A stretch of DNA of 62,157 nucleotides, filler included, from Nemertoderma westbladi (GCA_032718475.1; 4 parts of 4 records of this genome joined end to end with filler, not necessarily neighbours in it); one strand, 5' to 3'. Positions 33,287-37,239 are shown, numbered from the whole stretch's first letter. Numbers and translations: made by a program. The notes: a model not told the origin generated them from the letters alone.

Positions 33287-33416
33287 TTACGTCCTCTTGC
33301 CTCTGATCCTACGGGCCAGTTTGGATATCCTTCGGCATTATGGTAACTCGATTGGCGTGGATAGTGCACAGATTCGTGTCCTCAAACAATCCAACGAGAT
33401 AAGCCTCAGATGCTTC
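33287..33416 (-). pseudogene. H3: Histone H3 3' fragment (residues 94-135 plus stop), decayed
   Basis: The minus strand reads GAA GCA TCT GAG GCT TAT CTC GTT GGA TTG TTT GAG GAC ACG AAT CTG TGC ACT ATC CAC GCC AAT CGA GTT ACC ATA ATG CCG AAG GAT ATC CAA (a) CTG GCC CGT AGG ATC AGA GGC AAG AGG ACG TAA. This gives [32 protein letters not shown]/[10 protein letters not shown]: 38/42 identical to H3, with one +1 frameshift. Confidence 0.95.
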
Positions 33417-33417
33417 A

Positions 33418-36400
33418 CTACACCTCTAAAATATCGTAGAGTCCTTCAGTTAATGATTCGCTGGTTCCCAATATCGAAGCGGTGTTTCCGATCAGGATAG
33501 CTATCAGGATACGCTGTAGTAAGAAGCGATGAGAACGGGGCTCATGCGTGTTGGCATGGAGCCTCATCCCGACTTCTTTGAGGAAAGCGGCTGTTCTCGG
33601 ACCGGGGCGGCCAAATGTCTCAAAGGCAACTGGTTCGAACTGATAGCCCCGATCAATTAACTCCTGATACTTCCTAATCTTTACGTTCTCCTGATCCTCG
33701 GCTATGCGACCACCAATGTTTTGGCTTATTCTGAGATGGCTGGGGGCCAGCGGGTCGACTACTGTGGCATCCCAGGTAAGTGTTCTTCCCTGGCTCCAAG
33801 GAACTAATGTTACACCATCTACCCGCTTCCCATCGCTCAAACAGAGACCTGGCGGTTCACGCAGGGATGGCACGCCGCAGCTGTTTAGTGATCGCTTTAC
33901 GATATCGTTCAACATGCTGTGGCGTGCTTGTCGACCTGCGCTCTTACTGCACGAGAGACCATGGAGACCGTCAGATTTAACGGGTTTACCGCACCGGAAA
34001 CAGTTGTGGGGCTCCGTTACTTTACATCCCAGGCGGGTTGCTATTGAAATACGGAGCTGGGCATCTGTTAGTTTCAGGCCTAATGATGATACTGGGATCG
34101 CGTCGATCCAACAGCCAGGGATTGGGTCGTCTAAAGCATTTAGCCGGGCCAGATCATTACCGACAGCGGATTCGTGGAGGCAGCCACGGTTGAACTCATG
34201 GATTGGAGCCATCCATGAACTCTGTTTGGAATCGGTTGGTGCGATGATGTCAGTGGTGGTGTAGGACTGCCACAGTTCTAGTGCACCGCGAGAGGTGATG
34301 TCATTTGCGATGGGTTGGGGGTGAAGGGCTCCCGGGATATCTCGTACCGAGTAAACTTCTGGAGTGAAAAGGAGATTCGTGAGAGGTCTGCAAGCAGCCG
34401 CTGAAGCCAAATAGGCAGTCGGTGCGAGCTGCTTGGCAGAGCTCATCCCAAGGCCTCCCAATCGGGCAGGAAGTGAAGCCTGCTTCCATGCCTTGTCGTC
34501 GATTTGCGAGTTGGCGATGTCTTGGAGGGAGGATCGTTGGAGTTGGTCGTATCGCTCTAGAATCGCCGGGAATTCAAAGCATGGGGCGGAGCGCAAGAAG
34601 TACAGAAGGCGGGGTATGGCGAAGGAATTCTTCAGGAGGAAAAACGCGTGGTGACTATCGAGCGATGATAACCGGCTACTCATGGTCTCCAGATCAGATA
34701 CCTTTGCCTCAAGACATTTCACCATTGCAAATTTCCCTATCGGCGCGCCCAGCATCGTGAGGTTGGCGAGGTCGGGTACTAAGATTCCCTCGCAGATGCT
34801 GTTGAACTCTTTGTGGATGCGATGGCGCTCCTCTTCGGGTGTTTCTCCCAGAAAAAATAACTCGCATTTCTTAGAGTTTAAAGTTAACCCGCACTTCCGT
34901 CCTTCCTCGATAACTGTCTGGAGATCCTGTAGCACGATCTCATATTTGTCTGCGAAGTTTCCATCATCGAGATACCAGACGTTAAATTTAGATTTCAGCG
35001 AGTGGTTGAGATCGTTCGTGACATCTCCAAACAATGCAGGACCTTCGGGGTCTCCCTGTTGCGGACCTTCTTCGGAGAGGATCACCTTGTCTCTGTGTAT
35101 TAGGAAACTATAATCACTATAGGCTGCCCGGGTATAATTGTAAATCATCGGATAGCGCTGATGGATTGTCTCTAGGAGAGAGTCTCTACGGAGCGTGTTA
35201 AAGGCATTACTGAAATCGACTTTCAGTAAAACCGAGCAGCCGTTATTATCTGCTGAGACATACGAACGCGCTGCGTGTGCTGCTGCTTCGGCTCCGTTCT
35301 TGGTCCCGATGCCGAGCTGAGTGGAACCATATGAGGCTGACCTCTCTTCCTTCATGAGTGAGCCGACGTATTTTGAGCACAGTCGTCGCCATGTCATACC
35401 AACAGCAATTGGCCGGATTCCTACACTCTTCACAAATGCGAAGAGGTTTGCTCCAAAGAAGAGTGGTCCGATACAGTCTGGGATCTTACCGGCAACAACA
35501 AGGTCGACGAACTTGCACATGGAGTTAAGAAGTCGGGATGCTGCCTCTCCATTTTCGGCCCTTATGAGATCTTTGATGATCTGGGGTCGGATACCATCCG
35601 GCCCACCTGCGCTACCACTCGGAAATGTGGTGATCAGTTTGCGTAGTACCTGTGGTGAACAAGGTGTTGCACTTGGCTGCACTGGGGGAGGGGGGTCGCG
35701 TCTGTCTGCTGGGCGAGGAGGGTGCTTAGCTTTCAGGGCCTGCAGCGTCTCGGGAGTGTTCGGTGCCATAGAGTCTGTCGATGATGCGAGTCTGATAGCA
35801 CCTCTGACATCGCCGTCTTCTATCTTCTCCGCGACTGCAGTGGCAAGGCGGATCTCATCCCGATTATTCTGATGTCGTGCCGATGTGGTATTCATTTCTG
35901 GAGGAGGCGTGATGAAGGGGGAACAAGTGCGGAATGCGGCGATGTTCTTGTTCACTTGTGAGGCTAGGGACAGTTGTTGTCGCCTTCCTCCTCGCTTAGG
36001 AGCCGCTATACAGCGGTGACCTGCGATCAGAAGCTTAAACCAACTATCAACCAATGACGGGTCTGCGACTATGGCCATGAACAGATCGGATAAGAGGCTG
36101 GCGAGATTAGCTCTGGATGCCTTTGGGACATGTTTTAGTTGCTTAGCCCGATTGCCAATTAACATTTTAACAAGAGTCTCGGGGTCTGTGATGGTGTTCG
36201 GCGATGTCACTGGATCATCAATAGCTTCGGCTGGTTGCTGGCTGTGTGAGGTTCCTCCTTGGATAGGTGGCAGTCGCGGGTCATCCGGTCTGGATTGACC
36301 AGAGCCGAAGCACCTATTATCGGTGGGACCATGAACACGTAATGTGTCGTTTAAGTTGATACGGACACTTTTGTTGCAGACAGGGCACACGCATTGTGAC

Positions 36401-37239
36401 GGATCCCTTCTGAATTCGGCCCGGGACTCCGTTGGTGCGGATCTCTGAGACGATTGTGGCTGATTAGGTTCATCAGGCTGTATTGGCGTGGTTCTTTGAG
36501 GTTCGTCTTTTTCAGGCTGCGCTGGTGCTATTCTCTGAGGCGAGTGTGGCTGCCGAGGTTCGACAGGCTGCATGGAGTTGGGGATTCTAATGATGGATTC
36601 TAGTTCATCTAGTAGGGACTCCCTATATACCTGGATCGTCTCATCGTTGATGTCTAATGGGGATCCACCCTCGATAACCATCTTCGCAAACCGACAGAGG
36701 TAAACACCACATTGGTAGGAGTTGTATTGTCGCCTGGCCAGTGGTGGGTCGATTTTGAAGTGAGGGGGTGTTATGTTGAGCCTTCCAGCTTCTAACATTG
36801 CCCAATCTCTGATTATATTTACCACCTGATCATTTGAGTTCCCAAGTGAGTCGAGGTAGGCGATGTTTCCATGTTCTGGAAAAAAGGCAGCTAGAGTCCA
36901 GTGCTTACCATTCACGTTTACAGGAAACAGTATCAAAGCAAGCGAGAAGATATTAGTGTTCCGCGTCCAACGCTTCACCGATTCGTAGCCGCCATCGCTG
37001 GCTGAGTAGCGGTCTATAAAATGGTGCAGCACCAACACATCATCCCGGGATGTTCTTAAAGAATTTAGCACAACTTCGATAACGCTGTGCGTAAGCCACC
37101 CTCTGCCTCGAAGCGTATCAATATCTTTGGCTGTGATTGTGGTCCCGAAACAATCGTAGGTCGCTTGATTACTGGATGGTGTGTTCGTGTTGTTAACGGT
37201 TCTTCCTGATAGATATATAACGCTATCGTTTAGTTCCAT
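33418..37239 (-). CDS. Intact single-ORF CRE-clade retrotransposon protein: Ulp1-like cysteine protease, zinc finger, RT, CCHC, restriction-like endonuclease
   Basis: Ulp1/C48 motifs DIDTL....WL, FPVN...[22 protein letters not shown]. Zinc finger CPVC..HGP...RCFGSG. RT motifs [63 protein letters not shown] motifs [27 protein letters not shown]. Confidence 0.93.

Follow-up and report, generated by a model that had tools for sequence, protein, structure and literature searches.

Why does an intact retrotransposon run, one nucleotide behind its stop codon, into the 3′ third of a histone H3 gene? The question is raised by a 62,157-nt stretch of DNA from Nemertoderma westbladi (hereafter the window), which consists of four contigs joined end to end, their mutual adjacency being unknown, and which carries on its minus strand the open reading frame (ORF) of a non-LTR element (one lacking long terminal repeats, LTRs) with a restriction-like endonuclease (RLE). 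The initial annotation offered two readings of this arrangement: site-specific insertion of the element into H3 at the Q93/E94 boundary, or capture of an H3 segment as the 3′ untranslated region (UTR) of the family. Analysis of the window, of contigs from sequence runs and of related elements points to capture in a particular form: the 3′ end of the family is probably the last exon of an H3.3 gene, spliced on to the element RNA and then retrotransposed as its 3′ UTR. The element is likely a multicopy non-LTR family that carries histone sequence and does not insert into histone genes. Two points go beyond the initial annotation, namely a SENP/Ulp1 domain at the N terminus of the protein, and a breakpoint that is likely an exon boundary, with a splice-donor motif on the element side.

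The element runs into the 3′ part of an H3.3-type gene

The features at the 3′ end of the element are as follows.

33418–37239, minus strand: single ORF encoding a Ulp1/SENP protease, CCHC finger, reverse transcriptase (RT), second CCHC and RLE
33416–33417, minus strand: element–H3 junction T|GAAGCA, likely a splice junction
33287–33416, minus strand: H3.3-type codons 94–135 and stop, with a +1 frameshift at 33320, non-coding here
33239–33286, minus strand: sequence behind the H3 stop, likely H3.3 3′ UTR (X2 record 1, X5 record 17)

The single ORF of 1273 codons, open from 37239 to 33418, ends GAG GTG TAG and is followed by one T (33417) and by GAA GCA TCT starting at 33416, from which H3 codons run to the H3 stop, all as originally described. 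Codons 94–125 match H3.2/H3.3 chains (E 4e-15; Pfam Histone, 7e-13) with the changes A111T and K115N; an extra A follows at 33320, then codons 126–135 and a TAA at 33289–33287. K133 and T135 differ from the expected E133 and A135, which bears out the earlier count of four residue changes and one frameshift in the 130 nt of the piece. The H3 piece is not translated, since the TAG is followed in frame by a TGA and the H3 codons lie in a shifted frame; an ORF-H3 fusion protein was rejected on these grounds.

Two H3.3 features were found, S96 in the window copy and AAIG at positions 87–90 in upstream sequence from run X5 (see below), residues that are characteristic of H3.3. No Rfam histone stem-loop matched in the 48 nt available behind the H3 stop, after which the contig ends (33239) and the N linker begins (33238). 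The piece therefore likely derives from an H3.3-type gene plus its 3′ UTR, not from a tandem replication-dependent cluster. The 5′ two-thirds of H3 had been reported as missing, and they were not recovered here: tblastn with the 32-residue piece found no second H3 piece in the window (full-length H3 was not used as a query), and a 22-nt H3.3 upstream sequence had no window match at up to 3 mismatches. In folding, the last 202 nt do not surpass shuffled sequences (z +1.36). A comparison of the two sides of the linker gap for a target duplication found no shared words other than low-complexity TAA ones.

The breakpoint recurs in contigs from three studies

Six sequence runs were available, three of which contained at least 80% of the sampled words, these three coming from two studies. 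Runs X1, X2, X3 and X5 were aligned to the window, and three of them were re-aligned over the 3′ end of the element; every run consists of contigs, with depth relative only. Long contigs that differ little from the window extend over the element body up to 37410–37490, at depths of 161–241 (X1), 256–421 (X2) and 191–338 (X3) that rise in steps toward the 3′ end; in X2, the H3-bearing 3′ end reaches 1219–1368 as compared with about 300–420 for the body. Depth in X3 climbs stepwise toward the 3′ end (272, 279, 338, 450, 703 and about 1250–1400 summed), as expected of 5′ truncation.

Contigs with at least 31 letters on either side bridge the junction in X2 (record 2, 33356–33482, depth 1368, 2 differences), X3 (record 11, 33384–33452, depth 664, 1 difference) and X5 (record 23, 33352–33627, depth 49, 6 differences), which represent three studies. 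X2 record 1 (33239–33382, depth 1219, 2 differences) aligns without a gap and so keeps the extra base at 33320; contigs without this base are listed for none of X1, X2 and X3 and once for X5, at depth 20018. The fused 3′ end is dominant in the contigs of two studies and present in the third: at 33442 it makes up 1368 of a depth of 1499 in X2, and in X3 a sister form stands at 55 versus about 1267. T135 is private to the window copy, position 33292 being C in all four runs, and the X5 copy, truncated at 33627, has three unlisted differences from the window that probably lie in the H3 part.

In X5, which lacks the element body, contigs of very high depth cover nothing but the H3 part; one of them is free of the frameshift, and two run upstream of E94 as AAIGALQ. 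We read these deep contigs as intact host H3.3. What follows the H3 stop has a depth of 872 in X5 (record 17) versus 49 at the element end, and is thus likely the 3′ UTR of the host H3.3 gene.

On its 5′ side, the window copy has an AT-rich, non-H3 flank (37543–37741, no strand assigned: a degenerate (TAA)-like AT tract, likely its 5′ flank), the flank of the X5 copy resembles an AT-rich repeat at 39325–39970, and one X3 contig leaves the H3 piece at 33354 for unrelated AT-rich sequence, the pattern expected of a very short truncated copy. H3 sequence stands on none of these three 5′ flanks, 17 of the 24 loose ends being covered. Loose ends at 33599–33634 were considered as further junctions and rejected by eye; they were read as contigs of diverged sister families of the element, which are present in X2, X3 and X5.

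A sister form has a splice-donor motif at the breakpoint

The sister form was found in X2 (record 3, depth 131) and X3 (record 12, depth 55). It follows the element to 33416 and continues with the same 12 non-H3 nucleotides in both runs, so that on the element strand it reads TAG T GTAGGTGC where the fused form reads TAG T GAAGCATC. The sister sequence T|GTAGGT puts a splice-donor motif exactly at the junction. GTAGGT matches five of the six positions of the donor consensus GTRAGT, and GT with three of the four further donor positions occurs at 10 of the 4129 positions of the element sense strand.

On the H3 side, a morpholino target at the exon 3/intron 3 boundary of zebrafish h3f3a (PMC3447937) translates to A-L-Q followed by GTGAG, which means that the last zebrafish exon (exon 4) starts at E94. 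In human H3-3A, the start codon lies in exon 2 and the C-terminal part in exon 4, according to 10.64898/2026.04.03.715131, and H3.3 genes beyond mammals have introns, for which the portions of PMC6560044 and PMC3156773 at hand give no positions. Both sides of the junction fit one splicing event. For donor motif and exon boundary together, the chance comes to roughly 2 x 0.0024 x 2/408, on the order of 1e-5, a post hoc figure that allows two placements for a 1-nt microhomology and assumes a host intron.

An RLE protein with an N-terminal SUMO-protease domain

The remaining features of the element, all on the minus strand, are listed in 5′ to 3′ order.

37240–37490: element 5′ UTR (body contigs reach 37490 in X1 and 37410 in X2 and X3)
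36610–37158: SENP1/2-like SUMO-protease domain, residues 28–210 (Pfam Peptidase_C48, E 8.4e-16)
36310–36387: N-terminal CCHC zinc finger, residues 285–310 (motif scan; C..C..H..C conserved, many homologues)
34852–35421: RT core, residues 607–796, with QQGDP at 727 and YLDD at 756 (Pfam RVT_1, E 1.9e-14)
33421–34002: CCHC knuckle (residues 1080–1097) and RLE, with the native C terminus

The true 5′ end of the element is uncertain and lies between 37410 and about 37550. The 5′ UTR has no Rfam ribozyme match, and two sub-threshold Rfam matches to microRNAs fall at a hairpin upstream. Residues 28–210 align with SENP1 chains (E 1.3e-20), H113, D130, Q171 and C177 falling on the catalytic motifs, and the contigs over the element body include this stretch; activity as a SUMO protease is predicted for the domain. 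Endonuclease motifs are RH at 1106, RVDG at 1139, D1157 and K1187/K1190. A profile built from the ORF and 20 homologues has R2 proteins as its best PDB matches (E 1.5e-21), with a weak second stretch across the endonuclease. The last residues of the ORF align with the C termini of its closest homologues, which indicates that the ORF is complete and that nothing in it derives from H3.

One ORF with RT, CCHC and PD-(D/E)xK endonuclease in this order places the element in the R2 group of RLE elements, and the Ulp1-like protease at the N terminus is a character of NeSL and Utopia. The targets of these two were not found: between 33239 and 38200, no spliced-leader or U2 small nuclear RNA (snRNA) matched in Rfam at E up to 1. 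The label CRE-like in the initial annotation is presumably apt by motifs; no named CRE sequence was among the matches.

Relatives were compared as 204 homologous proteins, many of them fragments, and as 80 related loci, the best of 482 relatives in metagenome contigs; viral contigs contained no related loci. The SENP/Ulp1 domain was detected in none of these 204 proteins, fragments included, and in none of the best 80 loci. A search with the N-terminal region found no homologue at E up to 0.001 among 2211 near-length candidates, a result that counts neither way. In a tree of 39 RT regions, the ORF falls in a supported set of 8 homologue rows, and the protease is absent from the three full-length members scanned from clusters of this set. 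The lack of the protease in the nearest homologues makes an independent gain likely. Among the 18 long or full-length homologues scanned, a deubiquitinase domain of USP type was found in 6 and one of OTU type in 1, and gain of a ubiquitin-family protease thus recurs in the group. In related RLE elements, the OTU/USP domains are N- or C-terminal; OTU/USP domains, PHD fingers or RFX are present in P0062, P0070, P0085, P0095, P0099, P0112, P0115, P0054, P0061 and P0102. The USP label requires two changes on the tree, and may nevertheless have a single origin.

H3 was found in none of the best 80 loci, and (TAA)3 or more lies within 200 nt of the stop in 27 of the 48 loci with enough 3′ flank, which together point to a non-H3 UTR as the ancestral state. 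Many related loci (L002–L080) end 60–100 nt past the stop with a hairpin and tail; in many relatives the hairpin has the form CCCTCGGG...CCGAGGG, behind which come a run of A and then (TAA)n. Upstream of the element, (TAA)4 or more was seen in 16 of 52 loci, which suggests that the relatives prefer TAA microsatellites.

Proposed origin of the chimera and alternative explanations

We propose that the last exon of H3.3 once had a copy of the element upstream of it, for example in the last intron in sense orientation, or that the RNA of such an ancestral copy was trans-spliced to that exon. A cryptic donor 1 nt past the ORF stop would have been joined to the acceptor of the exon, and splicing would have removed the old 3′ UTR and supplied an H3.3 3′ end to the RNA. 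Nonsense-mediated decay follows a 50-nt rule; with its stop 1 nt before the last junction, the spliced RNA would escape. Target-primed reverse transcription would then have spread the intron-less chimera, mostly 5′-truncated, into AT-rich sites and so founded the dominant subfamily; the untranslated H3 piece has drifted. The SENP-like domain would counter SUMO-dependent silencing.

We hold it very likely that H3 sequence was captured as such, and, if it was, we consider splicing quite probable as the route. Several observations weigh against the splice origin. None of the 17 loose ends covered, of 24, shows a host H3.3 intron at Q93|E94, and no paper was found that gives its position in invertebrates, the supplement of PMC3156773 lying outside the search. 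On its exonic side (AGT), the donor agrees poorly with the consensus, the continuation of the sister form is known for 12 nt only, and two of its four differences are unlisted and may adjoin the junction. The single G of microhomology at the junction could serve a template switch as well. The 3′ terminus of the family, its tail and a target duplication were not seen, the contig ending first, and because all runs are contigs their depth gives no copy number. The three differences of the X5 copy indicate, moreover, that the H3 substitutions are not all shared. The initial annotation had named a shared breakpoint and shared H3 substitutions as support for capture: breakpoint and frameshift are indeed common to copies, in agreement with a captured 3′ UTR.

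Capture could also have taken place without splicing, if at the 1-nt microhomology reverse transcription that had started on H3.3 mRNA jumped to the RNA of the element just behind its stop, or if DNA recombined there, the chimera then spreading. Such an event explains the shared breakpoint, the frameshift and the loss of the old UTR equally well, has its microhomology at the junction and needs no host intron. It does not, however, account for a break on a donor motif of the kind found at 10 of 4129 positions, nor for a match of that break to the zebrafish exon boundary, one of two coding-region introns in about 408 nt; we consider it unlikely. More improbable still is a chance insertion or rearrangement beside an H3.3 exon followed by tandem or segmental multiplication at the DNA level, with no retrotransposition. 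The genome is rich in tandem arrays and contig depth cannot separate dispersed from tandem copies, but the stepwise gradient of 5′ truncation, the differing 5′ flanks, a copy whose truncation falls within the H3 piece, and several near-identical copies in which the 3.8-kb ORF is open do not fit multiplication of this kind.

Insertion of the element into H3 at Q93/E94, comparable to that of R2 into 28S rDNA or of Utopia into U2 genes, would explain why the breakpoint is the same in three studies; target specificity is widespread among RLE elements (PMC4640811), and targets can lose their 5′ parts. Against such insertion stand the three non-H3 5′ flanks, the lack of an H3-upstream loose end among those shown in X2 and X3, and a downstream H3 that is frameshifted in the dominant X2 contig and not in the host-type contig of X5. 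The H3.3-type source and the missing 3′ UTR of the element itself also speak against targeting, which is already largely refuted and which we rate as very improbable; the added suggestion that the H3 tail helps to prime at H3 loci found no support. An assembly artefact, which had been named as a danger, the junction lying less than 200 nt from a contig end (178 nt from the linker gap), is refuted by the bridging contigs in X2, X3 and X5, and its probability is negligible. Splicing of the H3.3 last exon on to the element RNA thus remains the explanation we prefer.

Other features of the window

The contigs of the window are separated by a linker, N44-TTAATTAATTAA-N44, in three identical copies at window positions 15164, 33139 and 57258. 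A broken second RLE-type element with a weak match to the CCHC region lies at 12546–14954 (minus strand), and is presumably HERO-like by its motifs. Remains of retroelements at 17671–21543 (minus), 23170–26691 (plus), 57425–58768 (minus) and 59628–59966 (plus) comprise RT and PHD fragments, a disrupted Pao-type LTR element (peptidase A17, integrase) and an endonuclease-bearing piece of a long interspersed nuclear element. Two long uninterrupted ORFs without introns were found, one CCDC6-like (40926–42317, plus strand; DUF2046, E 5e-117) and the other similar to MFS/SLC22 transporters (52854–54074, minus strand; E 4e-30). Tandem arrays at 5799–8679, 9109–12433, 28762–32320, 42543–44228 and 45384–48691 have periods of 26, 59, 10, 19 and 24, and the long ORFs inside them are by-products. 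Two high-depth repeats resemble miniature inverted-repeat transposable elements: a hairpin at 38050–38205 with 54-nt arms that are 94% complementary, and an AT-rich inverted repeat at 39324–39970.

Comparison with known systems and implications

A host gene fragment behind the ORF of a non-LTR element has a precedent in TART-A of Drosophila melanogaster, in which part of nxf2 is fixed in the 3′ UTR and antisense piRNAs are made, according to PMC7785250. As in TART-A, the host coding sequence described here stands in the 3′ UTR across copies, behind the ORF of most of them, and in both cases the captured gene is tied to silencing. The TART-A segment is 93–96% identical to the host gene, and the present element has 2 to 4 differences per 52–60 nt. 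TART-A is, however, telomeric, and read-through transduction has been proposed for it (same paper), whereas here an RLE element is concerned, splicing is suggested by a donor motif and an exactly matched exon boundary, and the captured sequence stands in place of the entire UTR. In humans, a MAST2-SVA fusion founded a subfamily (PMC4982230). The likeness lies in a host exon fused to a retroelement and in the founding of a new subfamily. MAST2-SVA reportedly arose through exon trapping by splicing, a 5′ exon being joined to a non-autonomous element; here, a terminal exon stands on the 3′ end of an autonomous one.

The sites used by target-specific RLE elements are rRNA, spliced-leader, tRNA and U2 genes and also microsatellites, and Ulp1-like domains occur in nematode NeSL elements and in Utopia-1_TSP, according to PMC4640811 (both statements) and PMC3636483 (targets). 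Like CRE, NeSL, Utopia, R2 and HERO elements, the element has one ORF with zinc finger, RT, CCHC and PD-(D/E)xK endonuclease, and like nematode NeSL and Utopia-1_TSP it has an N-terminal Ulp1-like protease. It differs from the R2 group in that no multicopy RNA-gene target was found for it, and histone sequence travels with the element. The word "histone" is absent from the available text of PMC4640811 and PMC4494074, and we found no publication in which an H3.3 exon forms the 3′ UTR of a non-LTR family, Repbase and subscription papers lying outside the search.

If the splice origin is true, splicing has given an autonomous RLE retrotransposon a terminal exon of the host in place of its entire 3′ UTR, and ancestor and chimera both persist in the genome, the chimera being about ten times commoner. 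A fixed junction to a conserved gene can, moreover, mimic site-specific targeting. Since the relatives end in a conserved hairpin and tail, the family tests the need of such proteins for recognition of a 3′ RNA, a need that bears on their use as insertion tools. The H3.3 tail together with the SUMO protease provides a testable link to chromatin silencing. It is conceivable, though doubtful, that the family won through a host-derived two-part anti-silencing kit, in which a SENP-type SUMO protease would be combined with an H3.3 terminal exon that turns host small RNAs against H3.3 mRNA, or makes silencing too costly.

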